From NCBI GenBank assembly GCA_027365725.1, contig DAHXMA010000012.1:50488-114487 (forward strand): 64,000 nt of DNA, given 5' to 3'. This stretch comes from Candidatus Micrarchaeota archaeon (GTDB taxonomy: Archaea; Micrarchaeota; Micrarchaeia; Micrarchaeales; CABMGC01). A program made the translations under genes and the position numbers. Shown here piece by piece: positions 23,466-41,705 of this stretch. Every line of letters starts with the position of its first letter. Positions within the stretch are counted from its first letter, which is position 1. The notes under the pieces were generated by a model. It was not told the DNA's origin, did not search any database, and was given only the letters and a program-made list of their open reading frames with translations.

Positions 23466-23467
23466 TC

Positions 23468-25864: not shown

Positions 25865-25866
25865 TC

Positions 25867-28683
25867 TTAGTCAAACTTCCAATATTTGCGGTTCTTTATA
25901 AAATTCCTTTGGGCGTCTATTATGTCGGTAAAGAACATTTTGTAATCACTCCGTAGGTATCGTAGCGTCCTTGCGGCAGTGTCCAGGCCTATTCCATATA
26001 CTGAAAGTGCAATTATTGCGCGGTAGCCGTATGCGTCTATAAAACTTGCTTGCCTTAGTATTTCCTTGTGTATTTTTGATTCGTTTGTTGTGAGGCGTTT
26101 GTGATTTTGTGTTTTTATTAGTATTTTGTTGTATTCGTCAGAATATATTGCCACTAGAGGGCTTTTGCAGCTCTGGCACAGTATCTTTTTGTCTTCTTTT
26201 ACGTGTATTTTTTCGTTGAAGATGTGGCCGCAAAATGTGCAGATCATCCTTTCGCTTTTTCCTTCAAACTTGTCAAACATGTTTTCTATTAGGCTTGCTC
26301 TTTGAGCCGCTGAGATTAGTTCGCCAAAGCTAAATGTTGATTGCAATATTGCAGTAGAAAGCGGGGATGGGGATTTGTTGGCTTTGATTATCCTTATTTC
26401 GCCGGTGCGTATCTTGTTTATTATTGGGCCGATTATACCCATTTCAAAATAGTTTTTGTTAAGATCTCTTATTGTTTCGTCTGATATTGGTGAGTTCTCA
26501 TAAAAACTTAGGAGGCGGTTTGCCATTGACCTGGTTATTGGAGCTGATTTATCTATCACTCCGAAAAGCTTTGCAGCCTGTATGAATTTGTACCTAAAGA
26601 GATCGGAGTCGTAAATAATGTGAATGTCGTTAATGTTTATGACCTTTAGTTCGTTGAGTATTTTTTCTGTATCGGGCAGCCTCGTAAGGCCAGTATAATC
26701 GAAAATTAAGGCGTACGGTGTTGCTTTCACATTTATTTTTGTGCCTGCGACAGAAGAAGCTGTTGCTGATAGGATTTTAGCTATAAAGTCGTTTGCATTT
26801 TTACCGTAAGGCATGTATGCTATTGCACAGCTGTCAAGTTCCTCTATTGTTATGGTGTTTTTATCTATGTTAATGAACTCTTTGTTTTTTTGTATAAATT
26901 TCTCAAGGGCGTCTTGCGTGTTTGTGTCTATTTTTGGTTGCGTGTTTGGTATTCCTATCTTGAGATAATCATAAACCTTGGAGGCTATTTCTAAAGATAC
27001 TGGTATGTCCTCCCCTTCCCAGTCTGGCACAGCCGCAGTAATGTCATCGCTGGGTTCTACATATATCGTTCCGTCTTCTATACTTATTGCTTTCCAGGGA
27101 AAGCCTTTTGTTATAAAAACGGATCCGGCGTCTATGTAGTTCGAAACGAACTCTTCATCAAGAGAGGATATGGCCTTATTGTCTGCTGCAACCTTTACTA
27201 TAAATTTTGAATTGTCTGGGATTACGCTGATCTTGTTTATAAAATATTTCCTTCCACGTGGCCCTAGGGATATTGTGCTATTATCGTCATTTATGAGGCG
27301 AAGGTCTGATATCAGGGTGCAGACTTTATCGAAGTTTTCTTGTTTTAAGCTTGAGTAGGCATATGTTTTTTTTATTATTTTAAATGCCGAATCTCGACTT
27401 ATTTTTCTATATTCCAGTGCCATTGCGATTATCTGATTTGCAAGTACGTCAAGCGCGTTTTTTTCAACTTCGCGTTTTTCCAACTTGAATGAAAGTGCCG
27501 CTTCTGATATGGCTATTGATTCTAAGGCGTCTAGTTCTGATGTGGCAATGATCTGGCCAGATGTTGTCTTTGATTCGCTGTGCCCTGCCCTTCCTACTCT
27601 TTGTATAAGGCGGGTTACTTGTTTTGGCGATCCGTATTGTATTACAAGGTCCACTGCGCCTATGTCTATTCCTAGCTCAAGCGAGCTTGTGGCTAGTATG
27701 GCTTTTATTTTTCCTTCCTTGAATGCGTTTTCTGTGCTTATACGCTCTTCCCTGTCTATTGAGCTGTGATGTATCCCTATTTTTCCGAAATCGAAAGATT
27801 TTCCTATTATTATAAGCTTGCTGCCTATTGATTCTACTGCCTGGCGCGTATTTGCGAATACTAAGCTTGCTTTTGAATTGTTTATGAGCGTGGCTACTCG
27901 CATAACGCGTGAATAAGATCTCACATCCAAGCCCAATAACTGCCGCAGGTTCCTGTTTTCATTTTCTGGTGCCATTGGTAATTCTATGGTTATGTTTATG
28001 TCTTTTTTTGTTTTTGATGAGATTGTGCTGTAGTTTCTTTCGTTGAATAAAAATTTTGCTGCGTCTCCTATGTTGCCTATTGTTGCACTTATTCCTATGC
28101 GCTGATACCCAATAGAGAGTTCTTCCAATCTTTCTAACGCAACCGAAAGCTGTGCTCCTCGCTTGTTGTAATACAATTCGTGGATTTCGTCAACTATCAC
28201 TGTTTTAATATTTGATAGGCTTTTTCTTAGGTTTTTTGAAAGCAGAAGGTTTTGTATTGTCTCTGGGGTTGTTATCAAGAGCTGGGGAGGGTTGGTTGAC
28301 TGTCTTCTCCTCTCGCTTTGTGGCGTGTCGCCATGCCTTGTAGATATGCTTATTGCAAGCTCGGAACCAAGCCATGACAGGCGTTTCATCAGGTCCCGGT
28401 TAAGTGAGCGCAGTGGCGTTATATAAAGTGCCATTATGCCTGCTTTGTTGTCAGAGCAAAGGATCTTTTTAAGGGTTGGAAGTATTGCAGCCTCTGTTTT
28501 TCCGCTTCCCGTGGGCGCAGTTATTATGCAGTTTTCTCCTGCCTCTATTTTTGGTATTGCTGCAACCTGTATTTCAGTGAAATCTTTAAATCGGGTAAGG
28601 AAAAGTTTGTACGGGTCATTATGCATTTCATCAGGTTTATTTTGTAACTTCAGCGAATCCTTCGGTTTTTTGCCCTTTGCCAT
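25867..28683 (-). CDS. lhr: Lhr-type large SF2 helicase (DEAD/DEAH box, Lhr-core plus C-terminal extension)
   Basis: TAPTGSGKTEAAILP, VIVDEIHEL, SATIGN, QRVGRAGH. 938 aa with a Cys-rich segment (CTFCGH...CQSCKS). An alternative start at 28626 would remove the overlap with the upstream gene. Confidence 0.85.
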   Translation of the reverse strand: MAKGKKPKDSLKLQNKPDEMHNDPYKLFLTRFKDFTEIQVAAIPKIEAGENCIITAPTGSGKTEAAILPTLKKILCSDNKAGIMALYITPLRSLNRDLMKRLSWLGSELAISISTRHGDTPQSERRRQSTNPPQLLITTPETIQNLLLSKNLRKSLSNIKTVIVDEIHELYYNKRGAQLSVALERLEELSIGYQRIGISATIGNIGDAAKFLFNERNYSTISSKTKKDINITIELPMAPENENRNLRQLLGLDVRSYSRVMRVATLINNSKASLVFANTRQAVESIGSKLIIIGKSFDFGKIGIHHSSIDREERISTENAFKEGKIKAILATSSLELGIDIGAVDLVIQYGSPKQVTRLIQRVGRAGHSESKTTSGQIIATSELDALESIAISEAALSFKLEKREVEKNALDVLANQIIAMALEYRKISRDSAFKIIKKTYAYSSLKQENFDKVCTLISDLRLINDDNSTISLGPRGRKYFINKISVIPDNSKFIVKVAADNKAISSLDEEFVSNYIDAGSVFITKGFPWKAISIEDGTIYVEPSDDITAAVPDWEGEDIPVSLEIASKVYDYLKIGIPNTQPKIDTNTQDALEKFIQKNKEFINIDKNTITIEELDSCAIAYMPYGKNANDFIAKILSATASSVAGTKINVKATPYALIFDYTGLTRLPDTEKILNELKVININDIHIIYDSDLFRYKFIQAAKLFGVIDKSAPITRSMANRLLSFYENSPISDETIRDLNKNYFEMGIIGPIINKIRTGEIRIIKANKSPSPLSTAILQSTFSFGELISAAQRASLIENMFDKFEGKSERMICTFCGHIFNEKIHVKEDKKILCQSCKSPLVAIYSDEYNKILIKTQNHKRLTTNESKIHKEILRQASFIDAYGYRAIIALSVYGIGLDTAARTLRYLRSDYKMFFTDIIDAQRNFIKNRKYWKFD

Positions 28684-30229
28684 CTAAGGTGTAGTTGAGG
28701 TACATGTGCAGAGGTATGTTTATGGGTATTATGCTGCTGTTTATGATTTTGCCATAGTTATAGCAGGGGGATGGCACAGACGTCGTACTTCCTGGGGCAA
28801 GAGTTACGTTAATCTTTGAAAATGTTGTGTTGCCTATCAAAGAGCATGCTATTCCGGTTAGTATTATGGTGCTGTTATAGCTGTCCGCAAGGGTAAGATT
28901 AATAATAAGGTTTGGTGGTTTTGTTTGGAAGAATGGATTTGAACAGGTTATGTTTGAATTGAATACGCAAGAATCCGCGTAGGCAGATACAAAGGATATG
29001 TGTTGTCCGGTAAAGTTATAGCTGCCTATTAGCTTAAGTGAGTAATTGAATCCCGATTGTGATGCGTTTGACTCGGGTATCCACCAGACACTTGCATTAT
29101 AGCTTCCTTGAAGGCGTTCAAGCTGGTCAAGTATCACGTTGCCTTGTAGCAGCTGGTTGTCGCAATAAGAAATGTTGCTTATATTCAATATGTTACCGTA
29201 ACAAATGTTGCTAAAATTCTCGCCGTGCATTATACTTTCAAAAACTATTGAATTGCTTTCTAAGGAGAGGTCTCCAGAGTATGTAAGATTTTGTGATATG
29301 CCAGTATAATTTAGTATTGACGCGTTTTTATTTTTAAGGAGTGTGGATGTTTGTTTTCCGCTTGGCAAAAGGTGAGTAAAGTTTTTGTTTATGTACGAGG
29401 TGCAGTTTTCTCCAAATATTGAAACCAGTATTTTTGTCCATCCGCCAGAATACCACGCGCACAAGGTCGTGCTGTTGCCAAAGTCAATTGTTGTAATGCC
29501 TCTTGATTGGCTTTGGTTTATTCCTTCCCCTATGGCGGCTTCTGATATAGAGGAATTTGAAATATATCCCTGTATCCAAACCGCCGCGAGTGTGTAGTTT
29601 TTATAATACGCGTGGGAAACGTAGATTTTGCTTATATACTGTGAATATACATCAATTACCGGGTATAGGAAGGAGTTAACTTCCTGAGACCCTGTTAGAT
29701 ACAGGTATTTTGTGAAATTGTCAAAATATAGAGACGCAACATATCCTCTTGAATTCATGTTAAATGTATCAAGGCCGTCTGTTCCGTTGGGAAAGTTGAT
29801 TTGCGGTGCTGGAATTTCTTGCTGCAAAACACGCACTGTTGTTTTTGCGTATGAATCTTGCCTATTTATTATATTGTACAGGTGGCCTGGGTCTGCTTCG
29901 GCTTCTATTAAATACTCGCCAGGGGAGGTGGGAGTATAGTTAAAGTCTACTGTTGCTTGTTTCCCAGAAGGAAGATACGCACGATAAATTCTTGTTGTGT
30001 TTCCGTTTATGTATAGGCCTATTGAAATGTTGTTTATTGTGGATTGTCCTGTGTTGTTTATCTTTATTGGTATTGTTACCTTTTGATAGGGATAGGTTGT
30101 GTAGTTATTGCTTTGCATTTGGATGCTTATTGAAAGGGTTGGCTGATAATAAAACCTGAAATATGACGCGATGGCTATTAGTATAACTATAAACACGGCC
30201 CAGAGGTATATTTCTTTTATTTTTACCAT
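28637..30229 (-). CDS. Secreted/surface protein, N-terminal TM/signal anchor, extremely rich in N-glycosylation sequons
   Basis: N-terminal hydrophobic helix (IYLWAVFIVILIAIASYF). N/S/T/Y-rich. About 30 N-x-S/T sequons by hand count in 530 aa. No family recognised. Confidence 0.6.
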   Translation of the reverse strand: MVKIKEIYLWAVFIVILIAIASYFRFYYQPTLSISIQMQSNNYTTYPYQKVTIPIKINNTGQSTINNISIGLYINGNTTRIYRAYLPSGKQATVDFNYTPTSPGEYLIEAEADPGHLYNIINRQDSYAKTTVRVLQQEIPAPQINFPNGTDGLDTFNMNSRGYVASLYFDNFTKYLYLTGSQEVNSFLYPVIDVYSQYISKIYVSHAYYKNYTLAAVWIQGYISNSSISEAAIGEGINQSQSRGITTIDFGNSTTLCAWYSGGWTKILVSIFGENCTSYINKNFTHLLPSGKQTSTLLKNKNASILNYTGISQNLTYSGDLSLESNSIVFESIMHGENFSNICYGNILNISNISYCDNQLLQGNVILDQLERLQGSYNASVWWIPESNASQSGFNYSLKLIGSYNFTGQHISFVSAYADSCVFNSNITCSNPFFQTKPPNLIINLTLADSYNSTIILTGIACSLIGNTTFSKINVTLAPGSTTSVPSPCYNYGKIINSSIIPINIPLHMYLNYTLDGKGQKTEGFAEVTK

Positions 30230-30231
30230 TT

Positions 30232-30702
30232 TTATCGCGTTGGTGGTTTATTTTTAAGATCTTTTATTACTTTTCCTATTTTGCTTGCTGCTTCTGTGAA
30301 TTTTGATTCGAACACAAACCGTATCCAGTTTTCTGGGTCGAACCTGTTTCCGCTCTCTGGGTGGGTAAAATAGAACTTTCCTGATGCGTTTTCTATATAC
30401 CCCATGTTTTTCATTCTGAGTAAATGATATCTTAGGGTTTTTTCGTTTATTTCCTCCCAGTTTGAAGTTATGTATTCCTGCAATTCTTTTACTGTTGGGT
30501 CTGTGTTCCTTATGAATTGAAAATTCACAAGCGCATCAAGCACGGCGATGGCGCTTTGGCGCGATTCTCCTGGGTTTATTATACCAAGGGAAAGGGCCAG
30601 CCACCTGGCAGACGCTCTTCTGGTTTCTAATATCTGGTCTGTGAGCTTTAGATTCCTTAATGTGAATTCATTTTCTATTAAAGACGCTTCGCTAATATAC
30701 AA
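30232..30702 (-). CDS. Putative winged-helix transcription regulator
   Basis: KTLRYHLLRMKNMGYIENASGKFYF resembles a wHTH recognition helix plus wing. TTG start. The stop lies 2 nt before the start of the 28637-30229 gene. Confidence 0.45.
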   Translation of the reverse strand: MYISEASLIENEFTLRNLKLTDQILETRRASARWLALSLGIINPGESRQSAIAVLDALVNFQFIRNTDPTVKELQEYITSNWEEINEKTLRYHLLRMKNMGYIENASGKFYFTHPESGNRFDPENWIRFVFESKFTEAASKIGKVIKDLKNKPPTR

Positions 30703-30777
30703 AACAACATCTCTGATACAAATATAAGTCTATGCAAACATACTTAGTGTATTGACTAAATTTATATATGTGATTGC

Positions 30778-31131
30778 ATGCCTCAGGAAAACAATGAAAA
30801 GGATATGGAGCGGCTTGTAAAGGATTATCAGCTCACGCAAGAACAGTTGCGCCTATATTCCATACAGCTTGAGCAGTTTAAAGCCCAGAAGGCGGAGTTG
30901 GAGAGGGCAAAGGAAGAGCTTGGAACGGCGTCTGGAAAAGTGTATATAAGCGTTGGTGGAGTAATAGTAGAAACAACAAAGGAAAAGGCAGTTTCGGATG
31001 TGGCGGATCGGCTTGAATTATCAGATACAAGAATAGCTGCAGCTACAAAACAATACAACGAATTGCGGTCTCGCGAAAAGACCCTGAGTGAAAAAATAAC
31101 AGAAATTTATAAATCCAGTAAACCTGGATAA
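30778..31131 (+). CDS. pfdB: Prefoldin beta subunit
   Basis: 117 aa coiled-coil/beta-hairpin/coiled-coil pattern (LQLEQFKAQKAELERAKEEL...KVYISVGGVIVETTKEKAV...). Confidence 0.8.
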   Translation: MPQENNEKDMERLVKDYQLTQEQLRLYSIQLEQFKAQKAELERAKEELGTASGKVYISVGGVIVETTKEKAVSDVADRLELSDTRIAAATKQYNELRSREKTLSEKITEIYKSSKPG

Positions 31132-31154
31132 TTGTTTGCCCACTTTTCATATTT

Positions 31155-31649
31155 ATGAGATATTTTGACATTGTTAAATTTGATGTTGATGCCGCTTTGA
31201 CAAAGCGCCTTGGGTATCATAAAGTTTATGTTGTGGGGAAGGATCTGGAGATATGTCACGGTACCGAAGGGCTGCCAGGGCCAAAGATTGTCTTGGGTTG
31301 GGATCCTGGAGTGCTTGCGCGGTCGTTAAAGCAACCGGATGTTGTTGGTATGGTGTTCGAGGGTAAAGAGCTTAATAGGAAGCTTATAGAAAAGGCCGCA
31401 GAGCTGGAAAAAAACGTGTTTGTCCCTATAAGGAACCTGCTTTCATACGATATTGGTGAGCGCGTGTATGAAATGAGGCGGGTTGGTGATGTTGTTGCGG
31501 CGTGCCATAAGCTAGGGGCGCGTGCAAAACTTATAACGCTTGCAGAGGATGTGGCAGATATTATTTCTGTTGGTCAATTAAAGGAGCTGTCTTGCTTGTT
31601 TTCTGAAGATGGATACGCGCTGCCTGTATTTGATGGTGGGTTAATATGA
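31155..31649 (+). CDS. rnp3: RNase P protein component 3 (Rpp30-like), short form
   Basis: MRYFDI... start and NVFVPIRNLL...R...KLGARAKLITLAED pattern. Overlaps the pop5 start by 4 nt. Shorter (164 aa) than typical Rpp30. Confidence 0.55.
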   Translation: MRYFDIVKFDVDAALTKRLGYHKVYVVGKDLEICHGTEGLPGPKIVLGWDPGVLARSLKQPDVVGMVFEGKELNRKLIEKAAELEKNVFVPIRNLLSYDIGERVYEMRRVGDVVAACHKLGARAKLITLAEDVADIISVGQLKELSCLFSEDGYALPVFDGGLI

Positions 31650-31966
31650 TATTGCGTAGAAAAAGCAGATATGTGCTTGTGGAAGTTTCCTGCAAGGCCG
31701 ATTTGAATTCTTCCGAAATAAAAAAAGATGTGATGCTTTCTTTAACAAAAGAACTTGGAGGGTTGGGCAGGCTCCGCGCCGGCCCGAAGATCGTTTGGTG
31801 TGACTCTGATTCTAGGTTTATTGTGCGGGTTAATAGGGGTTATGAGAAGGCCGTTGTATTGGCTTTTGCATTTATTAAAAAACTTGGCAGTGTGCGGGCA
31901 GGGTTTTATACGCTTGGGGTATCTGGAAGCATAAGAAGCCTTATAGAGAGCTGCCGTGTTGTTTAG
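31646..31966 (+). CDS. rnp2: RNase P protein component 2 (Pop5)
   Basis: LRRKSRYVLVEV......LTKELGGLG......FIVRVNRGYEKAVVLAFAFI......LGVSGSIRSL matches the Pop5 pattern. Confidence 0.7.
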   Translation: MILRRKSRYVLVEVSCKADLNSSEIKKDVMLSLTKELGGLGRLRAGPKIVWCDSDSRFIVRVNRGYEKAVVLAFAFIKKLGSVRAGFYTLGVSGSIRSLIESCRVV

Positions 31967-32040
31967 CGTTTTTGGTCTTGTTGTTATAGATTAAAAGCTA
32001 GTGAAAATGACAATTAGTTTTCAGTGTGCCGAGGTGTTGT

Positions 32041-32742
32041 TTAGGCGTGACTTTTAATTGTTGATTCCTTGAAAAGCAAAATTGTTTCTTCTCTGTTTAA
32101 GGTTGTGTACGGTTTTCCACACGCGCTGCATGTAAATCCTGATTCGAAGGCGCTGTCAAAAGGAAGCACAATTTTTGCGCTTGGATAACATTTTTTGCAT
32201 ATAAAGAAATCGTTGCAGTTGTTTGGAAGGATGGGGTCTTGTGACGCGTTTGCCGCTGCTTCTATAATCTTAACATAATCCTCGATCTTTCCGTCATTGA
32301 GTTTCCAGTTAAAAATAAGCCAGCCTTTATTGTCCTTGTTAACATCGTATTTCACTATTCCGTAGCTGTTTAGTATGTTTAGTGTGCGTCTTGCGTCGTT
32401 TACTTTTACATTAAGCTTTAATGCAAGGTCTTCGTCGGTTTTTGGTTCCTTTGTCAATTCTAGCAGTATGTCTGTGGCTATTGCGCCTGCTTTTGTATTT
32501 ATGTCGGAAGAGAATGTTGGGCTTTGAATTATTGTTATTGACTTTGTGTGTGTTTCTATGTTCTGCGCCTGCTTTTGATTCTTGGTATACTTTGCTGGTC
32601 TTGGTTTGTGCGGGGCTGGGGCCTTTTGTTTAATTTGTGCTTTCTTTGTGTTTTTGCTGTGTTTTGGCTTCTTTGAGGTGTTTTTGGCACTGTTCTTAGA
32701 GATGTGATGTGTGCGTTTCTTTGTGTTTTTCATATATATCAT
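32041..32742 (-). CDS. tfe: Transcription factor E (TFE alpha) with lysine-rich N-terminal extension
   Basis: wH domain (DILLELTKEPKTDEDLALKLNVKVNDARRTLNILNSYGIVKY) and zinc ribbon (FFICKKC...FTCSACG). About 65 aa of K/P/Q/T-rich extra N-terminus. Confidence 0.8.
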   Translation of the reverse strand: MIYMKNTKKRTHHISKNSAKNTSKKPKHSKNTKKAQIKQKAPAPHKPRPAKYTKNQKQAQNIETHTKSITIIQSPTFSSDINTKAGAIATDILLELTKEPKTDEDLALKLNVKVNDARRTLNILNSYGIVKYDVNKDNKGWLIFNWKLNDGKIEDYVKIIEAAANASQDPILPNNCNDFFICKKCYPSAKIVLPFDSAFESGFTCSACGKPYTTLNREETILLFKESTIKSHA

Positions 32743-32908
32743 CAGGCAGCCAAATTGTGTGTTTGGGTATGTTGTTTATGTCAGAGCTTATATATAAATA
32801 TATCCTAATTTAAGCAAAGTTTGGAGAATTGGTTGTTATTTTGAGACTTTGTACGTGTTGCGCTTGCACAACTACAGCAGCGCACGCTGCTGGTAGGAAG
32901 GACGCTGC

Positions 32909-32919
32909 TTTTTATATTT
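32909..32919 (+). promoter_or_regulatory. TATA-box-like element upstream of tRNA-iMet
   Basis: TTTTTATATTT is centred ~29 nt upstream of the tRNA 5' end (32943), the usual archaeal TATA-to-TSS spacing. Preceded by palindrome CAGCAGCGCACGCTGCTG (32875-32892). Confidence 0.4.
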
Positions 32920-32942
32920 GTTAGGAGATATCTTCTGTGTGT

Positions 32943-33017
32943 AGCGAGGTAGGGTAGCCTGGAGTGCCCGCCGGGCTCATAACCCGGAGATCGGAGGTTC
33001 AAATCCTTCTCTCGCTA
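32943..33017 (+). tRNA. Initiator tRNA-Met (anticodon CAU)
   Basis: Acceptor AGCGAGG/TCTCGCT with A1:U72. Anticodon stem CCGGG/CCCGG (three G:C pairs next to the loop), loop CTCATAA, T-arm GGAGG-TTCAAAT-CCTTC. CCA is not encoded. Confidence 0.85.
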
Positions 33018-33039
33018 CGTAACCTATAAGCCCCCACAC

Positions 33040-33140
33040 TTCCACTATTCGCGTATCTTTTATTATATAGTACCATAATAATTGCAAGCTAAATGTAATA
33101 AATATGCCAAAAACCGAAAATTTGATATAAAATAGTGGAA
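33040..33140. repeat. 10-bp perfect inverted repeat flanking an AT-rich 81-bp spacer
   Basis: TTCCACTATT (33040-33049) and AATAGTGGAA (33131-33140). The AGTGGAA core resembles the ORB core (cCAGTGGAAa) from memory. The right copy overlaps the TATA/leader of the 33157 gene. A 10-mer inverted pair is not statistically compelling on its own. Confidence 0.35.
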
Positions 33141-33156
33141 CTGCACCCTGATACAC

Positions 33157-33624
33157 ATGATAGAAACAGAGATAAACACGAACGCAATATACAATATGCT
33201 TAAAAACGAGCAGAAGTCCGGAGAACTCTTGCCAATTAAAAAAGACTTCTATTCAAAAATAGCTGAAAAGCTTACTGGCGCCTCAGAGGATCAAGGAGAG
33301 CAAAAAAACCTTTTAAAAGTAATAAATGCCCTAAAAGAGCGCAGGAAACAGAAAATTCTCGTATATCTAGCATACGATAAAGACCTTCCCTCCCCAATCC
33401 CTTCAGAAGAAGAAGATTTATATATGCAAATAAAAAACATATTAAACAAGAACGACACCACACAGAAGCCAACAAAATTAAAAATCACAAAAACAATACC
33501 GCAAATAATAACACAGACAGGAAGCAAGCTGGGGCCGTACGAACAAAACGAAATAGTCTATATTTACGATAACACAGACACAAAATTTATAATAGAAAAC
33601 AAACTCGGAGAAATAGTATTATAA
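33157..33624 (+). CDS. GINS subunit-like protein (Gins51/Gins15 family candidate)
   Basis: SGELLPIKKDFYSKI...LLKVINALKERRKQKILVYLA...SEEEDLYMQI follows the GINS A-domain pattern, and C-terminal GPYEQNEIVYIYDNTDTKFIIENKLGEIV resembles the B-domain. Judged by eye only. Confidence 0.5.
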   Translation: MIETEINTNAIYNMLKNEQKSGELLPIKKDFYSKIAEKLTGASEDQGEQKNLLKVINALKERRKQKILVYLAYDKDLPSPIPSEEEDLYMQIKNILNKNDTTQKPTKLKITKTIPQIITQTGSKLGPYEQNEIVYIYDNTDTKFIIENKLGEIVL

Positions 33625-33635
33625 TGGCGATGTAA

Positions 33636-33917
33636 ATGAAGATAAACAAGGAACTTATGTTATACTGCCCACACTGCAACAAACACACAAAACACACACT
33701 TAGAAACTACAACAAAAAACCACAGCGCGGACTAAGCCTAGGAACACGCCGACACAACCGTGCAATAAAAGGATATGTAGGAAGCATAGAACCAAAAATT
33801 CATCCAAAAAAGCTTGGCAAAAAACAAAAACTAATTACCGAATGTCAAGTGTGCAAGAAACACGGAGAGAAAGTAGTTGGCATGAGGACCAAGAAAAAGA
33901 TTGAGATAAGCAGGTAA
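33636..33917 (+). CDS. rpl44e: Ribosomal protein L44e (eL42)
   Basis: YCPHCNKHTKHT...GTRRHNRAIKGYVGS...ECQVCKK is the eL42 zinc-ribbon pattern. Confidence 0.9.
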   Translation: MKINKELMLYCPHCNKHTKHTLRNYNKKPQRGLSLGTRRHNRAIKGYVGSIEPKIHPKKLGKKQKLITECQVCKKHGEKVVGMRTKKKIEISR

Positions 33918-33921
33918 GTCA

Positions 33922-34689
33922 TTGATAATACCAAAAACACTGCCTGACGTGGGAGACCTTGTAATAATAAAAATCACAAAAATAATGCCTCACGGGGCCT
34001 ATTGCAAACTAACAGAATACAACATAGACTCCTATCTACCCATATCAGAAGTGTCTTCTGGTTGGATTAAGAACATCCACGAGTTCATAAAGGAGGGCCA
34101 GCAGGACGTGGCAAAAGTAATTTTTGTGGACAAGGAAAAAAACTCAGTAGACATATCCTTAAAAAAAGCAACAACAAAGGACAAAAAAGACAAAATCAAC
34201 GAATTCGGCCTCGAAAAACGTGCAGAAGCCATATTCAACAAATCAATAGACCTATCAAAGCAACAAAACCACAAACAGGAAATACTTGCAGAGGTAGCAA
34301 AAAAGTTCAAAACATACAACGAGCTAGTCAACCTGGCATTTGAGGGCAGCGATCCATTATCCACAACAAATTACAAGGAATTTAGAACAGCGTTTTATGA
34401 TTTTGTTAAAAAAACGATAAAGCCTAAAGTATATTCTGTTGCTTATAATGTAGATTTGATGTCAACTGATGTAAAAACCGGAGGAATAAACCAAATAAAA
34501 AGCACGCTCAAAGCAATAGAAACAACAGGCATAAACGTGCTCTATGTGGGCGCTCCCAGATACCGCTTTATCTCCACAGATTCCAGCTATCCCAAAGCGG
34601 AAGAAAAAATCAAAAAAGCCCAACAAATACTAGAGAGGACAAAGAAAATCTCATTTTCCATGAAGGGAATAAAATCGGCTCAAACATGA
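33922..34689 (+). CDS. eif2a: Translation initiation factor aIF2 alpha subunit
   Basis: LPDVGDLVIIKITKIMPHGAYCKLTEYNIDSYLPISEVSSGWIKNIHEFIKEGQ is the S1 domain of aIF2alpha. TTG start. No S27e lies between L44e and this gene. Confidence 0.85.
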   Translation: MIIPKTLPDVGDLVIIKITKIMPHGAYCKLTEYNIDSYLPISEVSSGWIKNIHEFIKEGQQDVAKVIFVDKEKNSVDISLKKATTKDKKDKINEFGLEKRAEAIFNKSIDLSKQQNHKQEILAEVAKKFKTYNELVNLAFEGSDPLSTTNYKEFRTAFYDFVKKTIKPKVYSVAYNVDLMSTDVKTGGINQIKSTLKAIETTGINVLYVGAPRYRFISTDSSYPKAEEKIKKAQQILERTKKISFSMKGIKSAQT

Positions 34690-35441
34690 ACAAAACAAGA
34701 ATTTATTTTAATTCAAAAATAAAAACAAAGAGCTCAATCGCCGTTGTAGGTCTTCCCGGAATAGGAAGCGTAGGCAGCCTCGTCGGTGAATATCTAAAGA
34801 ACGAGGTCAGAGCAAAACGCATTGCAACCCTATATTCTCCCCATTTCATACACCAGACAATAATGCTAAAAAATGGATATACCCGCCTAATAAGCAACAG
34901 GTTTTACGCAAAAACCGTAAACGGCAGAACCATAATAATACTAATCGGCGACACACAAGCAACAACACCAGAGGGACAGTATGAAGTTAACGACACCATA
35001 GTAAAATTTCTGAAGAAACTGGGCTGCAAAACAATATATACTATTGGGGGATACAGTGCAGGAAACTATAGCATACAAAACCCCAAAGTATTTGGCGTTG
35101 CATCGGATAAGCAAACCAAGACAGAGCTAGAAAAGAGTGGCATAGTCTTTGGCAAAACATTCGGGGCAATATGGGGATCTGCCGGCCTAATTGTTTCTTT
35201 TGCAAAAATGCACAGAATACGCTCAGCATGCATAATGGGAGAAACAAGCACACTAGAAATAGATGCAAACGCAGCAAAAGCCGTTCTAACGGCAATGGCA
35301 AAGGTTTTAAAGATAAACATAAACCTAGACAACATAGATAAAATAAAGAAAGAAACAGACCGCCTTATAAAGGAAATTGAAGAAGCAGCCGCAGTTCCGC
35401 CACAAAACGTGCAAAAAGAAAACTTTCCATACATAAGATAA
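34686..35441 (+). CDS. PAC2-family proteasome assembly chaperone (PbaA/B-like)
   Basis: SIAVVGLPGIGSVGSLVGEYL...IILIGDTQATTPEGQYEV...IYTIGGY matches the PAC2/COG1938 pattern. 4-nt overlap with eif2a. Confidence 0.65.
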   Translation: MNKTRIYFNSKIKTKSSIAVVGLPGIGSVGSLVGEYLKNEVRAKRIATLYSPHFIHQTIMLKNGYTRLISNRFYAKTVNGRTIIILIGDTQATTPEGQYEVNDTIVKFLKKLGCKTIYTIGGYSAGNYSIQNPKVFGVASDKQTKTELEKSGIVFGKTFGAIWGSAGLIVSFAKMHRIRSACIMGETSTLEIDANAAKAVLTAMAKVLKININLDNIDKIKKETDRLIKEIEEAAAVPPQNVQKENFPYIR

Positions 35442-35442
35442 C

Positions 35443-37182
35443 TTACCTTTTCCTTAACACAAGCCTCAGCACAACAAAAACGGCAAGTACAACTATTAAA
35501 TACACCAGATATTGCAAAATAACTTGAAGTTGCAATCCTATTTGGCCCAAATTAAAAGAGACCGCCCCACCAGGGTTAATAACATATGCTGCCGTTGTTG
35601 CCGGCGCCGTGTAAGTAGAAGAGTTAGATATATATTGCGCTGAAGAGTTTATTTCGTTGCTTGAAAACATTTGAACATACGGGTTTAATTTTCCTACAGT
35701 AACAAAAGCCCCGTCCCCGTTTTTAGATGCAGCGACCATAAGTCCGCCAGCAGTCTCCTTTGTATCTAACCCAAACGCAAAAGCAGAAGGAAAAGGCACA
35801 AGCCTGCCCTGGCTGTAATAATATAGCCACAAAAGAGCACCCATCCTATAAAATTTTGCCTCTGCGCCATTAGACGACCCACCAAAAACAAACTCCGCAT
35901 CATAATAATTTCCAGTCAAATTAGCTCCGGACGGAGTGAGGAAAAACGGAGAAACCAGTATACTTGAATTGTGATATCCTCTAAAAACCACCCTATCATA
36001 GTAAATCATGGGCTGCAACCCGGCCACACCATTTTTCATGATTTGATATCCAAAAGACACCACAGTACCGTTATATGTGTTGTTTTCGGTTACGACCAGT
36101 TTCAACTTCAGCGGCAAAGAATAATCAATAAAACCGACCGGATAAGAATAAGCATAAAACTGTTGTCCAAAACAGTCACTACACACGCTTAAATTACCTT
36201 CCCCATAAAGACTACCCGAAGCCACGCTGGCATACGGCAACGTATTATTCCATATATTGTCTACAAGATAAAATCTATCCGAACTTGTGTTAAAATCAGC
36301 AACGTTTTGAAGCCAAAAAACCTGCTCCCTTCCGTTTGTTTTTGTCTGCATTTCCACATTAAGCTGCAAGCCGTCTCCAAACTCAGACCCATTTTGCAAT
36401 AAGCCCGTATTGTTTGCATACATGGAAGTAATATTTGCAACACCAACAACCCCGCTTGTATTTATCTGGTAAGCAAACATATGTCCCTGTTTATCATACA
36501 GCCCATAACTTGCAACACCTATCGGATTGGAGTAATTAGACACATACTCAAACGGATTTATCAACGTGCTTGTATTTGAAATTCCCAGCAAAACAGTTTC
36601 AGGAAATTCTGAAGAAAGATAAACAGACTGATTCCCACGGTTCAAAGTAAAATTCAAAAACTCAAGATTCGCACTACCGTTCAAATATACTGGCTGCCCA
36701 GAAACATTTACCACCGTGTGGTCCTGCCGAAAGCCGCTATCAGAAAGCACGGTTATGTTAACCACGCTGTAATTATTAAGACCAAAAAAATAGGCGTGCG
36801 TTCCACCCGGACTTATAATACGAGCATCCGTGGTGTTGAACGGCGTCGCCCCAGCATAAATAACCACACCATCAGCAGCATAAAAAATCACAGTGTATTT
36901 TCCAGGTTCAGCCCCTATTTCATAAATTCCAGTTCCAACGCTTTTATTATACACTTCATATACTGGATTTCCTTGCTCCCAAGAGCTAAATTCGGAAGAA
37001 GGCACAACAACCAGATCAACATTTGAACTAGAATTAATCCCAACAAAAATGCTCGATCCTCTGCCCACAGTAAGGTTGTAATATATAAAATAACCTGCGT
37101 TCAGGCTTTGTTGTGCATATGCTACTCCTGCAAAAACAAGCACACAAAAAACCATAAACACAGAAATTTTTAGCCAAGACAT
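35443..37182 (-). CDS. Thermopsin-family (peptidase A5) extracellular protein with signal peptide and C-terminal TM anchor
   Basis: NPIGVASYGLY, LQLNVEM...VFWLQNVADFNTSSDRFYLVDNIWNNT, YYDAEFVFGGSSNGAEAKF and FGLDTKETA parallel the Sulfolobus thermopsin blocks as I recall them. Signal peptide MSWLKISVFMVFCVLVFAGVAYA from ATG 37182 (ORF-track TTG at 37200). C-terminal helix LVYLIVVLAVFVVLRLVL. Confidence 0.75.
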   Translation of the reverse strand: MSWLKISVFMVFCVLVFAGVAYAQQSLNAGYFIYYNLTVGRGSSIFVGINSSSNVDLVVVPSSEFSSWEQGNPVYEVYNKSVGTGIYEIGAEPGKYTVIFYAADGVVIYAGATPFNTTDARIISPGGTHAYFFGLNNYSVVNITVLSDSGFRQDHTVVNVSGQPVYLNGSANLEFLNFTLNRGNQSVYLSSEFPETVLLGISNTSTLINPFEYVSNYSNPIGVASYGLYDKQGHMFAYQINTSGVVGVANITSMYANNTGLLQNGSEFGDGLQLNVEMQTKTNGREQVFWLQNVADFNTSSDRFYLVDNIWNNTLPYASVASGSLYGEGNLSVCSDCFGQQFYAYSYPVGFIDYSLPLKLKLVVTENNTYNGTVVSFGYQIMKNGVAGLQPMIYYDRVVFRGYHNSSILVSPFFLTPSGANLTGNYYDAEFVFGGSSNGAEAKFYRMGALLWLYYYSQGRLVPFPSAFAFGLDTKETAGGLMVAASKNGDGAFVTVGKLNPYVQMFSSNEINSSAQYISNSSTYTAPATTAAYVINPGGAVSFNLGQIGLQLQVILQYLVYLIVVLAVFVVLRLVLRKR

Positions 37183-37218
37183 ATAAAATATATTTACCAA
37201 TCAATTAAATAAATATGG

Positions 37219-37303
37219 GCGCCAGTAGTCTAGCCTGGCAGGACTTCGCCTTCCCAAAAATTGGAAAAAGGCGAAAACCCGGGTTCAAATCCCGGCTGGC
37301 GCA
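37219..37303 (+). tRNA. tRNA-Gly (anticodon CCC) with 12-nt intron at canonical position 37/38
   Basis: Acceptor GCGCCAG/CTGGCGC + A, D-arm GTCT-AGCCTGGCA-GGAC, anticodon stem TCGCC/GGCGA enclosing 19 nt. Fold: TTCC/GGAA 4-bp helix flanked by 3-nt bulges CAA and AAA. Removing 37257-37268 gives loop TTCCCAA. T-arm CCGGG-TTCAAAT-CCCGG. An AT-rich TATA-like stretch lies at 37183-37195. Confidence 0.8.
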
Positions 37304-37372
37304 TTTATCATCATCATCCAACAAGCAGTTATATAATCTAAAGCATCAAATAATAAAATCAAGGCCGATTTT

Positions 37373-38284
37373 ATGGCAAACAATCAATATACCTGGTTTG
37401 ATGGTAAGTATATACCAACGGAAGAAGCAAAAGTCAGTATACTGACACATTCTCTGCAATACGGCAGCGGCATTTTTGAAGGCATAAGGGCATACGACAC
37501 CCCCAAAGGCCCAGCGATATTCCGGCTTCAAGACCACATCAAACGTTTCTTTGACACGGCGAAAATATACCGAATCAACTTAAAATTTACTAGAGCAGAG
37601 ATAGAGAAAGCGACAACAGAGCTGCTAAGGCGCAATAAACTTGCCGACGCCTATATCCGCCCATTCGCGTTTTATAACAGTGTGGGTATAGGATTCAGTA
37701 CGGAAGGAAAACCAATAAGCGTTACAATATCTGCGGTTCCTTTCGGAAGCCTCTTCGGAGACAAAAAGGAGCTCAGATGCAAGATATCTTCATGGCACAG
37801 AATAAACTCTTCGATACTTCCGGCTGGCGCAAAGGCAAGCGGGAATTATATAAACTCCATATTGGCTTCAAAGGAGGCCAAAGACTCCGGGTATGACGAA
37901 GCAATACTGTTTTCCAATTCAGGCAAGACCCTGGCAGAAGGCCCAGGGGAAAACATCTTTATTGTAAAAAACGGAATCTTGATAACCCCTCCCGAATCCG
38001 CAGACATACTAATAGGCATAACACGGGATACTGTAATACAAATAGCAAAGGCAAAAGGCATAATGGTAATTGAACGCGACATAAGAAGGGAAGAGATGTA
38101 TACTTGCGACGAAGCCTTTTTTTCAGGCACAGCTGCAGGAATAACTTCAATAATATCTGTCGACTCTGTAGATATCGGAGATGGGAAAAAAGGGCCAATA
38201 ACCTCCAAAATAGCCACAGAATACAAAATGATAGTAAGCGGCAAAGACCACAGCCACTCCGGCTGGCTCACTTTTGTTAAATAA
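37373..38284 (+). CDS. ilvE: Branched-chain amino acid aminotransferase (class IV)
   Basis: WFDGKYIPTEEAKVSILTHSLQYGSGIFEGIRAY...FRLQDHIKRF...TRD is typical of IlvE. Confidence 0.85.
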   Translation: MANNQYTWFDGKYIPTEEAKVSILTHSLQYGSGIFEGIRAYDTPKGPAIFRLQDHIKRFFDTAKIYRINLKFTRAEIEKATTELLRRNKLADAYIRPFAFYNSVGIGFSTEGKPISVTISAVPFGSLFGDKKELRCKISSWHRINSSILPAGAKASGNYINSILASKEAKDSGYDEAILFSNSGKTLAEGPGENIFIVKNGILITPPESADILIGITRDTVIQIAKAKGIMVIERDIRREEMYTCDEAFFSGTAAGITSIISVDSVDIGDGKKGPITSKIATEYKMIVSGKDHSHSGWLTFVK

Positions 38285-38302
38285 ATTCAACGCCCAACAA
38301 CA

Positions 38303-39946
38303 TTAGGTACTTGTAAGGCTTTCTTCTGCGAGGAGCTGGCCAGAGCCATATATTTGCCTTCTTGGAGCCGTAAACTGCGCAATGCCCCAAAACACAACCG
38401 CATAAGCAGCAACAGCTACCATATCATATGGAAACTGCACAAGTCCCACACCGCCCGTACCACTTCCGCCAGCATACGAAAGTCCGATCAGGCCAATAAC
38501 AAACAAAGGTATCCATACAGAATGCTTCAGGCCAAGGTTCCTCCACCCTGACCGGTTAGCCTGATAAATATAAAACACGCTGCCTATCAGTGTAGCTCCC
38601 AAAGCATAAAGCGTTGTTGGATATGTTGCCCAGTATATGAGGAGTGTTGACATAACAAACGCAACAAGCGACCACGCATTCACATACGGTATCCTAAACG
38701 GCCTTTTAATTTCCGGGTAAAGGCGTCTCAAGGCTGGCAGAGAAGCCGAAACAAGAGCAAAATTAACTACAGCGGCAACAACTACGAAATCCACAAGCGA
38801 GTACCACGATGGAAGAGGGATTATGAACACTACGGCAAGCACTGCAGCAAGCGCCAGAGACCACACCGGAACACCATCTCTATTCACTTTAGAAAAAATC
38901 CTTGGAAATGCGTTTTCCTTTGAGAAACCAAATATTATCCTAGCCGCCCCTGTCAGATAAACTCCAAAAGTGCCGAAAGGCGAAAAAATAGCAAAAAGCA
39001 AAGCAAGAACAACAAGCGCACCAAGGGCAGAAGCCGCAAACGCAGAAACCGTGCCCGCCCCCACATGCATAAGGTCGGCAAGAGGCGAGCTTAGTGCACT
39101 AACGCTGCTCCAAGTTCCCGGTGCAACACCAAGTGCGCTCCAGCTTACCGCACCAACAATAACAATAGCCATAAGCACATAGAACACGCTTTGGACTAAA
39201 AGCGTTGTCCCTATAGCAAGGGGCACGTTCTTCTTTGGATTTTTCATTTCCCCAGCCATATCTGCAACCTGCCTATATCCACCAAAAGAGAACAATATCC
39301 CAGTAGCCGGTATCGCTATAAGCACTCCTGCCCATCCATAAGGAACAAAGCCAGTACTTGTAAAATTACTTGAATGGAACAAGAATAGCGGGACAAGCAC
39401 TATGAATAATATAACTGCCGCTATTTTTAGATATGTCAACCATGAGTTAAATCTACCGAATTTAGAAACCCCCATCAAATTCAGTATTGCAAAGAAAATA
39501 GTTATTATTATAGCAACAATTACTCCCAAAGGCGTAAGGAGGCCGATGCCACCAACCACATGATATAAGCTAGGTATCCAGTACGACGCATACTGCGCAA
39601 CAGCAACGCCCTCTATTGCTGGTATTATTGCGGACCAAAGGAACAGCGCCCAACCAGATAAGAACCCGCCGTAGCTTCCATACACATAATACCCTATCCT
39701 TGCGCTTATGCCGCCCTTAGGCACCATCGATGCAATCTCTGCATAAGGCACCGTTATAAAGGCTATCATTATTGCTGCTATTATCCACGACACTATAACT
39801 GCGGGCCCTGCGTATGCCGTCCCGCCAGCAGCCGCAAAAAGTATTCCAGAACCTATGGCTCCGCCTATCCCTATTAATGCCGCATCCCTTAAGGTAAGCG
39901 CCCTTTTAAGCCCATGCCTTATAGCATTTACTCTACGCGCAGCCAT
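38303..39946 (-). CDS. APC-superfamily amino acid/polyamine permease
   Basis: 547 aa with about 12+ hydrophobic helices. N-terminal LTLRDAALIGIGGAIGSGILFAAAG is typical of APC transporters. Confidence 0.8.
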   Translation of the reverse strand: MAARRVNAIRHGLKRALTLRDAALIGIGGAIGSGILFAAAGGTAYAGPAVIVSWIIAAIMIAFITVPYAEIASMVPKGGISARIGYYVYGSYGGFLSGWALFLWSAIIPAIEGVAVAQYASYWIPSLYHVVGGIGLLTPLGVIVAIIITIFFAILNLMGVSKFGRFNSWLTYLKIAAVILFIVLVPLFLFHSSNFTSTGFVPYGWAGVLIAIPATGILFSFGGYRQVADMAGEMKNPKKNVPLAIGTTLLVQSVFYVLMAIVIVGAVSWSALGVAPGTWSSVSALSSPLADLMHVGAGTVSAFAASALGALVVLALLFAIFSPFGTFGVYLTGAARIIFGFSKENAFPRIFSKVNRDGVPVWSLALAAVLAVVFIIPLPSWYSLVDFVVVAAVVNFALVSASLPALRRLYPEIKRPFRIPYVNAWSLVAFVMSTLLIYWATYPTTLYALGATLIGSVFYIYQANRSGWRNLGLKHSVWIPLFVIGLIGLSYAGGSGTGGVGLVQFPYDMVAVAAYAVVFWGIAQFTAPRRQIYGSGQLLAEESLTST

Positions 39947-40172
39947 CCGAAGCCCTTTTCATACCCGATAAACTTTGCTCATGAGTATTTATATTACTTT
40001 TCAACAAGAAATTTCATTACAAAATCGCTATTTCTATTACCGAAACGCCAAAAATCATCCAGCCAAACAGAACAAATCAAAGCACAACGGACAATCAAAA
40101 AGCTGTCTATGCGATTTCGTGATCAGGCCCGGTTTTGTACCATGGCCTGCGCTTGCAATCGAAAATTTGGTT

Positions 40173-40247
40173 TGCTCCCATCGGGATTTGAACCCGAGTT
40201 GCGGGGTTGAAAGCCCCACGTCCTTGGCCGGACTAGACGATAGGAGC
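40173..40247 (-). tRNA. tRNA-Glu (anticodon UUC)
   Basis: GCTCCTA/TGGGAGC acceptor, D-arm GTCT-AGTCCGGCCA-AGGAC, anticodon stem TGGGG/CCCCG, loop CTTTCAA, T-arm TCGGG-TTCAAAT-CCCGA. CCA is not encoded. Confidence 0.9.
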
Positions 40248-40820
40248 ATGCCAGCTGTTAACTATTGAAAATACCTCTTCTTTAATTGCATCTATGCTCT
40301 TTGTACCATCTATTATATTGCTTTTGTATTCCAGCGCAAGCTTTTTGTACATCTTCCTTGTATCCTCCAGGAACCTTATCCGCTCGAAATAAGCTTTGCC
40401 TCTGCCACGCGCCTCTACCCTACCCATTGCTGTTTTCGGCTCTATGTCGAACACAAATGTAATATCCGGTTTTATGAACCTGTCATTTACATCGCGTAGC
40501 CACCTTTCATCCAGGCCGCTCGCCTTTCCGTAAGCTATTGTTGAGAAAAAATACCTGTCCGTTATCACCACCGCGCCTTGCTTCAACCTCGGTTTTATTA
40601 GATTCTCTACATGAAATGACCTGTCAGCCGCAAAAAGAAGCTGCACGGCCATGGGGTTTATTTTCTTCTTCTTTATAAGCTTCTTTATAAAATTTCCTAT
40701 GTCGCCCTGTGTTGGCTCCCTAGTCAAGACGCAGTCTTGCTTAGCCGACAGCTCATTGAAAAGCAGCTTCGCTTGGGTTGATTTCCCAGAGCCGTCTATT
40801 CCCTCAAAAGATATGAACAT
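40233..40820 (-). CDS. tmk: Thymidylate kinase
   Basis: MFISFEGIDGSGKSTQAKLL... with a DRY-like region (ITDRYFFSTIAYG). The last 15 nt overlap the 5' end of tRNA-Glu. Confidence 0.85.
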   Translation of the reverse strand: MFISFEGIDGSGKSTQAKLLFNELSAKQDCVLTREPTQGDIGNFIKKLIKKKKINPMAVQLLFAADRSFHVENLIKPRLKQGAVVITDRYFFSTIAYGKASGLDERWLRDVNDRFIKPDITFVFDIEPKTAMGRVEARGRGKAYFERIRFLEDTRKMYKKLALEYKSNIIDGTKSIDAIKEEVFSIVNSWHAPIV

Positions 40821-40882
40821 ATTTAAACAATTGGCTTGAAAGGTATTTTAATATTTAACATCAAGATAAAATCGTTGAGCAA

Positions 40883-41419
40883 ATGATACTTTCTGATTTT
40901 GACCTTGAAAGCATGATAAAGGAGAAGAGGCTTGTTATTAAGCCGTTCGCAAAGGAGATAATACGGGAGAATGGCCTTGACCTACGGCTGTCCGACCAGG
41001 TTGCAAGGCACAACCCAGGACGCGACACAGGATTTTTAATAGACCCCTCAGATCCCAGCACGCTAAAGGATGAGTACGTACTGGAAAGGATGCCAAAGGG
41101 CATAATAGTAAACCCCGGCACACAGGTCCTTTTATCAACAATAGAGTTTGTTGGCCTTCCAGACAATCTAGTTGGCTTCGTGGAGCTGAGAAGCACATGG
41201 GCAAGGCACGGTTTGTTTGTCCCTCCAACAATAATAGATGCAGGGTTCTCCGGCACAATAACGCTAGAGGTATTCAACAGCAGCAGATTCCCCATACTTC
41301 TAAGGCCCAAGGTAAGGTTTGCGCACGTGATATTTGCAACCACGCTCAATCGTGTAAGGAATGCCTATAGTGGAACATACCTTAACCAAAAAGGAGTGTT
41401 CCTTCCAAAGAAGCTCTGA
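40883..41419 (+). CDS. dcd: dCTP deaminase (dUTPase superfamily)
   Basis: MILSDFDLESMIKEKRLVIKPF...GLDLRL...GFVELRSTWARHGL...IDAGFSGTITLE. Confidence 0.85.
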   Translation: MILSDFDLESMIKEKRLVIKPFAKEIIRENGLDLRLSDQVARHNPGRDTGFLIDPSDPSTLKDEYVLERMPKGIIVNPGTQVLLSTIEFVGLPDNLVGFVELRSTWARHGLFVPPTIIDAGFSGTITLEVFNSSRFPILLRPKVRFAHVIFATTLNRVRNAYSGTYLNQKGVFLPKKL

Positions 41420-41426
41420 AAAAAGC

Positions 41427-41705
41427 CTACCTTGCCAGATCGTCCACTTCGTCCTTCCTTGCCTCCTGCGAAGTCACCAGCGGAGAAGAAACAAGCACAA
41501 CATCGCTCACATTCTTTACGTTCTTATACAGTATGCTCTTGTTTTTTAGGACCATCTTTGAATCCCCCTTCGCGGTTTTCCAAGGCACCATAAGCAGCCT
41601 GCTCAGTTCGCCCCGCTCAAGGTCAATTATTATGTCTTGGACTTCGCCCAAGTACTGTCCAGCATCACTATATATATCCATACGATATATTTCAGAGAGT
41701 TTCAT
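41427..41705 (-). CDS. PRC-barrel domain protein (paralog of 1117-1368)
   Basis: MKLSEIYRMDIYSDAGQYLGEVQDIIIDLERGELSRLLM. Start taken at the internal ATG. The upstream ORF-track extension looks non-coding. Confidence 0.6.
   Translation of the reverse strand: MKLSEIYRMDIYSDAGQYLGEVQDIIIDLERGELSRLLMVPWKTAKGDSKMVLKNKSILYKNVKNVSDVVLVSSPLVTSQEARKDEVDDLAR

Follow-up and report, generated by a model that had tools for sequence, protein, structure and literature searches.

A strand-composition switch beside gins51 as a candidate replication origin in a Micrarchaeota archaeon

The locus and its module

The stretch analysed here (the window) comprises 64,000 nt of contig DAHXMA010000012.1 from a Candidatus Micrarchaeota archaeon and corresponds to positions 49321-113320 of a matching 206-kb ENA contig. 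At 33 kb, the composition of its + strand flips from G/T-rich to A/C-rich, and this flip is real and sharp. At the same place, a compact module of ~120 bp is located between the initiator-tRNA gene and gins51, in which two inverted boxes similar to archaeal origin recognition boxes (ORBs) surround an AT-rich spacer. The locus is composed as follows:

1..32742, no strand: left domain, + strand G/T-rich in either gene orientation; polarity persists to at least -7.8 kb (contig extension L011)
32041..32742, - strand: tfe (TFIIE-alpha homologue; Pfam PF02002, E = 9e-8), final gene of the left domain
32743..33156, no strand: switch interval, a 414-nt stretch that is gene-free apart from the tRNA; best change point and both cumulative maxima
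32943..33018, + strand: initiator tRNA-Met (CAT), found by ARAGORN and Rfam, 12 nt upstream of box 1
33031..33053, - strand: ORB-like box 1, + strand CCCCCACACTTCCACTATTCGCG, G-rich strand CGCGAATAGTGGAAGTGTGGGGG (core and G-string)
33054..33130, no strand: AT-rich spacer, candidate DNA unwinding element (DUE), 77 nt, 79% A+T
33131..33150, + strand: ORB-like box 2, AATAGTGGAACTGCACCCTG, inverted relative to box 1, conserved in 10 species
33157..33624, + strand: predicted gins51/gins15-type GINS subunit gene (AlphaFold model, Foldseek; weak PF27418 match), first gene of the right domain
33157..64000, no strand: right domain, + strand C/A-rich in either gene orientation; polarity persists to at least 73 kb (contig extension L013)

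The tRNA-Met gene has kept its position next to box 1 in all related species. Its sequence shows an A1:U72 pair and a GGG/CCC anticodon stem, which are hallmarks of initiator tRNAs. The two boxes share the core AATAGTGGAA, and the left one, box 1, carries a G-string in addition. Across species, box 1 has the consensus CCCCACAnTTCCACTATTCGYG, read as CGAATAGTGGAAnTGTGGGG on the G-rich strand, and its core is invariant in 10 species. The cross-species sequence of box 2 is AATAGTGGAAnTGnACCCTGG. Only 6 nt separate the end of box 2 from the start codon of gins51, and the box overlaps with the presumed promoter of this gene. The inverted pair (33037-33049 / 33131-33143) is 92% complementary and 81 nt apart; in the other species, the spacing from core to core is ~83-102 bp. 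Within the 64 kb, the richest 70-nt A+T window of the spacer ranks fourth. A conserved TTATTATAT(T)A element (TTATTATATTAT) adjoins box 1 inside the spacer. This element and the A/T-rich character are conserved, and the remaining spacer has diverged between species. A first-pass annotation of the window had noted an AT-rich spacer with inverted repeats here.

Using a position weight matrix built from the boxes themselves, 83 kb were scanned for further copies. Three strong boxes (at least 19 bits) were found: box 1 (25.1 bits), box 2 (23.9 bits) and a site in the mcm promoter. The inverted arrangement around an AT-rich spacer is confined to the pair at the switch, and the G-string to box 1. 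A search of the spacer against Rfam with E values up to 10 yielded nothing but the tRNA.

The module between tRNA-iMet and gins51 was found in eight other GTDB species loci and in the metagenome contig L067, i.e. in 10 species including that of the window. The GINS proteins of these Micrarchaeota are only 51-64% identical, yet the boxes and the AT-rich spacer are conserved. A metagenome scan with box 1 (CCNNANTTCCASTATTCG) returned at least 120 stretches, almost all of them chance matches in unrelated DNA; among the matches listed, the box pair with the AT-rich spacer occurs only in L067.

Upstream of tfe (32780-32895), a stretch with the pattern TATATAAATA..TAATTT.AGCAAA...TTGTACGTG is conserved in four relatives (L014-L017), and a perfect GC-rich palindrome, CAGCAGCGCACGCTGCTG (~32876-32893), is found in the window only. 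Both may belong to the promoter or the 5' untranslated region or form a small hairpin.

The strand-composition switch

In a sliding 2-kb profile of the + strand, GC skew is positive between ~5 and 33 kb and turns negative from there to ~50 kb, and the sign change of AT skew coincides with that of GC skew. The whole + strand has a GC skew of +0.133 and an AT skew of -0.090 in 1-32742, and of -0.093 and +0.128, respectively, in 33157-64000. G+C content is ~45%, and the excess of G per kb amounts to ~+59 on the left and ~-42 on the right side.

To control for gene orientation, skews were determined at fourfold-degenerate third positions (GC4, AT4), all read on the + strand. For this, 90 curated genes between -7.8 and +73 kb were used (the window and ~10 kb of same-contig DNA on each side). 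The gene map was built from open reading frames, Pfam matches and gene calls on matching public contigs. The following values were obtained:

left side, + genes: GC4 skew +0.21, AT4 skew -0.08
left side, - genes: GC4 skew +0.19, AT4 skew -0.37
right side, + genes: GC4 skew -0.22, AT4 skew +0.35
right side, - genes: GC4 skew -0.29, AT4 skew +0.12

Intergenic DNA shows the same signs as the fourfold sites, with GC/AT skews of +0.12/-0.13 on the left and -0.13/+0.17 on the right. Because the genes of both strands and the intergenic DNA flip, a component of ~+/-0.2 in GC and AT skew is independent of gene orientation. The ordinary A excess of coding strands is superimposed on it. For the same reason, i.e. 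since both orientations, fourfold sites and intergenic DNA all flip, transcription or codon usage was rejected as the cause of the skew.

A strand-stratified likelihood scan placed the best change point between TFE (end at 32742) and the GINS gene (start at 33157). The gain in log-likelihood was 302.6, compared to a maximum of 110 in 500 permutations of gene order. At the nucleotide level, the cumulative maxima of G-C (32966) and T-A (33064) lie at or within the module and bracket box 1, the latter inside the AT-rich spacer. The amplitude peaks within 5 kb of the switch (GC4 0.34-0.43, AT4 0.46-0.55) and drops to 0.15-0.22 at 30-42 kb on both sides. The tfe gene already has the full left-type amplitude (GC3 +0.31 and AT3 -0.42, both on the + strand). 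Such a peak with decay to both sides is expected of a fixed origin and not of a collision zone.

Among the observations on which the first-pass annotation had based the flip were four hand tallies of 60 nt each, all of which proved exact on recount. It had placed the flip within ~1.2 kb, and the scan narrowed this to the 414-nt TFE|GINS interval.

Synteny and rearrangements in relatives

All eight other species loci have the gene order tRNA-Met(CAT) - GINS - L44e - aIF2alpha - PAC2. In four of them, the left flank is the same as in the window and the same skew flip is observed. In three others (L019-L021), the left block 19196-32742 (tRNA-Lys ... gyrBA ... Lhr ... tfe) is inverted; the breakpoint falls between tfe and tRNA-iMet. 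GC3 and AT3 change there in the same sense and at the same spacer, although Lhr, gyrA, gyrB, hyp445 and tfe are turned around. The comparison of synteny proposed in the first-pass annotation thus found the switch at the same spacer, also where the left flank is inverted.

A second rearrangement affects the right block 44627-50654 (Yip1 ... LPG-synthase ... TP-methylase, radA, DUF92), which is inverted and displaced by ~10 kb in the window lineage compared to L014-L021.

In both rearranged blocks, the skews have re-equilibrated. The coding-strand GC3 and AT3 of gyrA, gyrB, Lhr, hyp445, TFE, RadA, TP-methylase and DUF92 track the present orientation to the site. Since re-oriented orthologues show opposite coding-strand skew, the bias is continuously imposed by position relative to the site, as expected for replication polarity.

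In two distant Micrarchaeia (L142 10001-12073 and L143 9180-12085), orc1 is directly followed by a hyp17x-Pop5 (RNase P) pair. The same pair adjoins tfe and the candidate origin in the window, where 18 kb separate it from orc1, a hint that the distance between orc1 and the tRNA-iMet/gins51 spacer used to be shorter. The layout in the distant species shows rearrangement and gives no verdict on polarity.

Replication genes around the switch

The AlphaFold model of the protein encoded by the first right-domain gene (predicted local distance difference test score 77) comprises four helices followed by strands. Its best PDB match in Foldseek is 3anw_A (E = 2.3e-6; 'protein complex essential initiation of DNA replication'). 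GINS chains of CMG (Cdc45-MCM-GINS) complexes and archaeal GINS come next. Sequence-profile matches to GINS in the PDB are weak (E = 0.13-0.17). By its modelled fold, the protein is a Gins51/15-type subunit. A pan-archaeal Gins15-L44E-aIF2alpha gene cluster has been described (Berthon et al. 2008, PMC2643942). Similarly, gins51/15, L44e and aIF2alpha are contiguous and co-oriented immediately to the right of the switch. In contrast to the pan-archaeal cluster, S27E, Nop10, PCNA and PriS are absent from the cluster here, PAC2 follows aIF2alpha, and the promoter region doubles as the candidate origin. Because gins heads this known cluster, its adjacency is not by itself evidence for an origin. 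The first-pass annotation had listed the GINS-like gene among the origin-like features; as an argument for an origin, this adjacency is weak.

The initiator gene of the window is located in the left domain:

12306..13508, + strand: Orc1/Cdc6 initiator gene, Orc1-1 type (Pfam Cdc6_lid and Cdc6_C; PDB matches)

Its best PDB matches are Cdc6-1 from S. solfataricus (2qby_A, 4e-64) and ORC1 from A. pernix (2v1u_A, 2e-58), reportedly the two initiators that were crystallised on ORB DNA. The match to Cdc6-3 (Cdc6-3/ORC2 types) is far weaker (2e-24). Orc1 is the presumed trans-acting partner of the boxes. In the regions beside orc1, no large intergenic region, no box or ORB-like repeats and no sign change were found.

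The mcm gene lies ~35 kb to the left of the site, just outside the window. Within +/-20 kb of the site, genes for an SSB-like OB protein, gyrB/gyrA, Lhr, radA, thymidylate kinase and dCTP deaminase are present. With orc1, mcm, gins, gyrBA, SSB, radA and the genes for ribosomal proteins and RNA polymerase, the neighbourhood is dense in core replication and translation genes. The operons for ribosomal proteins and RNA polymerase are without exception directed away from the site; the same is true of 54 of the 90 genes (p = 0.036). The orientation argument for an origin is therefore marginal. The earlier statement that about two thirds of the right-hand genes are on the + strand holds by count (30/49) and fails by coding length (~50%).

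Box copies at the mcm and radA promoters

The third strong box (L011 8138-8153, window ~-1305) is located in the mcm/metRS intergenic region. It scores 19.3 bits, and a TATA-like element of the mcm promoter follows 6 nt downstream. In addition, the core (G/A)AATAGTGGAA occurs at window 49789-49804 (+), where the palindromic TATA box of a conserved noncoding RNA is ~10 nt away. This RNA gene is divergent from DUF92 and lies upstream of radA. In 6-7 species, the box has kept this place and is accompanied by a further dyad TTCCAAAnnnATGGAA. These copies suggest that replication and repair genes have a regulator in common, which may be Orc1.

In the same intergenic region between DUF92 and radA, an element of ~86 nt is nearly invariant in 8/8 species (window 49667-49752, -). 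It reads ACGAGTTCTCTATCATGGAGGAG...GCCAGC-hairpin-GCTGGCCTCTTCC, followed by a T-run, and has a TATA box ~27 nt upstream. Its consensus fold contains 16 pairs, two of which show compensatory changes, and a search against Rfam with E values up to 10 gave no match. The element probably encodes a small RNA not described before, with transcription running toward radA. In the relatives, it is found at:

L014: 16267-16352
L015: 15918-16003
L016: 12756-12840
L017: 10446-10531
L018: 6352-6431
L020: 15812-15895
L021: 15896-15980

Comparison with known origins

The euryarchaeal ORB consensus is GTTCCAGTGGAAAC-AAA----GGGGG (PMC1868953), and a mini-ORB of Pyrococcus reads TTCCAGTGGAACT with the invariant motifs TTCC and GAA (PMC1904270). 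Box 1 and the euryarchaeal consensus have AGTGGAA and the G-string (GGGGG) in common. Box 2 contains AGTGGAACT, nine contiguous nt of the Pyrococcus mini-ORB TTCCAGTGGAACT.

Like Orc1/Cdc6-dependent ORB-DUE origins (Pyrococcus oriC, Sulfolobus oriC1, Aeropyrum ori1, haloarchaeal oriC1), the module has inverted boxes that flank an AT-rich stretch and an AGTGGAA(C) core with a G-string. An Orc1-1-type initiator gene is nearby, replication genes are clustered around the site, and the site coincides with a strand-composition switch. In contrast to these origins, the initiator gene is 19.5 kb off instead of adjacent, only two boxes are present, each of them half a dyad, and the whole ~120-bp candidate module is squeezed between a tRNA gene and the start codon of gins51.

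The skew polarity at the candidate origin differs from that in Pyrococcus and matches that in haloarchaea and yeast. Haloarchaeal leading strands have an excess of C (Norais et al. 2007, PMC1868953), and in H. volcanii, a mapped origin lies where the cumulative GC skew of third positions and of non-coding DNA is maximal (PMC12999951). The leading strands of the yeasts S. cerevisiae, K. lactis and C. albicans are A/C-rich (PMC3459929). If the switch is an origin, its leading strands would have an excess of C as in haloarchaea and of A and C as in these yeasts, and it would be located at the third-position and non-coding cumulative GC-skew maximum like the H. volcanii origin. Unlike these cases, it belongs to a DPANN lineage with ~45% G+C. 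The average excess of G per kb is 7-8 in archaea and 23-25 in bacteria (PMC12999951); the amplitude in the window is far above both.

Origin or terminus

The switch most likely represents a replication origin, because the flip coincides with a small conserved origin-like module. A change in replication-fork polarity at the switch is supported, so that this part of the first-pass interpretation, which had allowed for an origin as well as a terminus, stands. In the reading that we consider probable, the switch marks the chromosomal replication origin of this Micrarchaeota (DPANN) archaeon, which would be compact, Orc1-dependent and characterized by an A/C-rich leading strand. The Orc1-1-type initiator, encoded 19.5 kb away, would bind to the boxes. 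The AT-rich spacer would then melt, MCM would be loaded, and forks would depart both ways from the module. The + strand would be the lagging strand to the left and the leading strand to the right of the site. Strand-specific mutation might in turn render the leading strand A/C-rich and the lagging strand G/T-rich at silent and non-coding sites.

Several points weigh against an origin of this kind. By the convention for bacteria and Pyrococcus, the sign of the skew (GC and keto, + to -) denotes a terminus. Since polarity differs between lineages, this sign is not diagnostic in archaea. The orc1 gene lies 19.5 kb to the left of the boxes instead of directly beside them; most mapped archaeal origins have orc1 adjacent. 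Only two boxes are present, and of the canonical TTCCA-N-TGGAA dyad each has just one half, with the AGTGGAA(CT) core. The orientation bias is weak by coding length, with 52.6% of coding bases directed away from the site. In the two distant Micrarchaeia, which have a higher GC content (L142, from an 853-kb contig, and L143), neither boxes nor an orientation-independent skew were found near orc1. Furthermore, the box could be a transcription-factor site, because the same 9-10-mer adjoins TATA boxes at the mcm and ncRNA/radA promoters.

Alternatively, the switch might be a replication terminus of conventional polarity, where G/T-rich leading strands end and forks converge at the spacer, while the boxes are unrelated or constitute a fork barrier. 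A + to - switch of GC skew with a cumulative maximum is indeed the sign of a bacterial or Pyrococcus terminus, and in many bacteria, one sharp skew jump is detected in the termination region (PMC3459929). As in a bacterial terminus/dif region, GC skew drops abruptly at an intergenic site of fixed position. We nevertheless regard such a terminus as unlikely and favour an origin. A dif site was defined as 28 bp with two 11-bp inverted arms around a 6-bp centre (PMC4640148). No dif-like 11-N(5-8)-11 palindrome (at least 9/11 matches) is present in window 32700-33200, and none is conserved in relatives, only three of which have A/T-rich matches (background 0.55 per kb). Instead, the conserved ORB-like inverted pair and the AT-rich spacer lie at the switch. 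To our knowledge, ORB-like boxes flanking an AT-rich stretch have no role at termini. An imprecise meeting of forks would presumably blur the switch, whereas the observed step spans less than 420 bp, has its maximal amplitude at the site and is found at this very spacer also in species whose flanks are rearranged. A terminus would also be expected in a variable, gene-poor region. Here, the region is packed with core informational genes, and a terminus would have orc1 (19.5 kb), the helicase gene mcm (~35 kb), gins and core translation genes all in its vicinity. A defined site of termination has yet to be described for archaea (PMC4640148). A variant in which the terminus is defined by sequence, with forks converging at a fixed conserved cis-element and the boxes acting as a polar barrier or an Orc1-bound fork trap, is disfavoured and seems more doubtful still. 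We know of no site-specific termination system in Archaea.

A different possibility accepts an origin at the switch and regards the AATAGTGGAA boxes as operators for a transcription factor at gins, mcm and the ncRNA next to radA, with the true initiator sites unrecognised. The box 6 nt upstream of the TATA-like element at mcm (L011 8140, 19.3 bits), the one ~10 nt from the TATA box of the ncRNA upstream of radA in 6-7 species and the overlap of box 2 with the gins promoter all agree with it. By contrast, the inverted layout around an AT-rich spacer is restricted to the switch pair and the G-string typical of ORBs to box 1, and Orc1 binding agrees with the likeness to published ORBs and with the Orc1-1 type of the initiator. 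Archaeal Orc1 paralogues are known to act as transcription regulators as well (PMC9738581). Therefore, the roles of operator and Orc1 site are not exclusive. Boxes that serve only as operators appear improbable.

An artefact or relic, i.e. a chimeric assembly at the tRNA gene or a recent large inversion that joined DNA of opposite skew, is highly improbable. The first-pass annotation had named both an assembly join and an inversion endpoint. Seven of the 10 contigs carrying the GINS gene (L003, L004, L006-L010; metagenome, Logan) end inside or at most 13 nt after the initiator tRNA (window 32964-33031), and L006 diverges within the tRNA. These ends probably reflect branching of the assembly graph at a tRNA that is near-identical in co-occurring relatives with different left flanks. 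Three independent ENA assemblies span 31-35 kb collinearly with 99.6-99.98% identity, and the same tRNA-iMet/box/gins51 junction is found in 9 other GTDB/metagenome species, four of which share the left flank. This rules out a chimera. The inversion endpoint is real insofar as an inter-species breakpoint lies here, between tfe and the tRNA, with the left flank inverted relative to three relatives. As the cause of the skew, an inversion was ruled out, since the inverted orthologues have the polarity of their present place and not that of their ancestry.

Other features of the window

In the intergenic region 5672-5975, between the proteasome-alpha/exosome operon and Fic, A+T content over 70 nt reaches 84%, the highest value in the window, and a G-rich, possibly structured segment follows. 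Neither ORB-like boxes nor a skew sign change were found in this region. In the distant relative L143, the homologous position is directly upstream of a ParA-orc1 operon.

At 37219-37303, ARAGORN called a tRNA-Trp(CCA). An alignment with the syntenic genes of six relatives identified it as tRNA-Gly(CCC) with a 12-nt intron right after the anticodon. In L021, the intron at this place is 14 nt long, and the gene is listed with an impossible anticodon.

Significance for Micrarchaeota

Origins of the ORB/DUE type and skew switches at origins are already known, as is inverted polarity in some archaea. New are an origin candidate for Micrarchaeota and evidence for a silent-site strand asymmetry that is unusually strong for an archaeon. 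Literature searches aimed at origins or skew in Micrarchaeota/ARMAN found no paper on a replication origin in this phylum. The locus provides a concrete and testable candidate: a 120-bp module, conserved in the clade, that lies apart from orc1 and merges with the gins51 promoter. The boxes can be used to anchor the start coordinates of genomes, for skew-based checks of metagenome-assembled genomes of this clade and for growth-rate (peak-to-trough) estimates from metagenomes.

Recently, it was generalised that archaeal chromosomes are largely devoid of strand-specific mutational skew (PMC12999951). A strong, orientation-independent asymmetry at silent sites in at least one archaeal lineage is an exception to this generalisation. 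If the origin is true, this lineage would have the polarity of yeast and haloarchaea, which would add a data point to the question of what makes archaeal/eukaryotic-type replisomes yield one polarity or the other.

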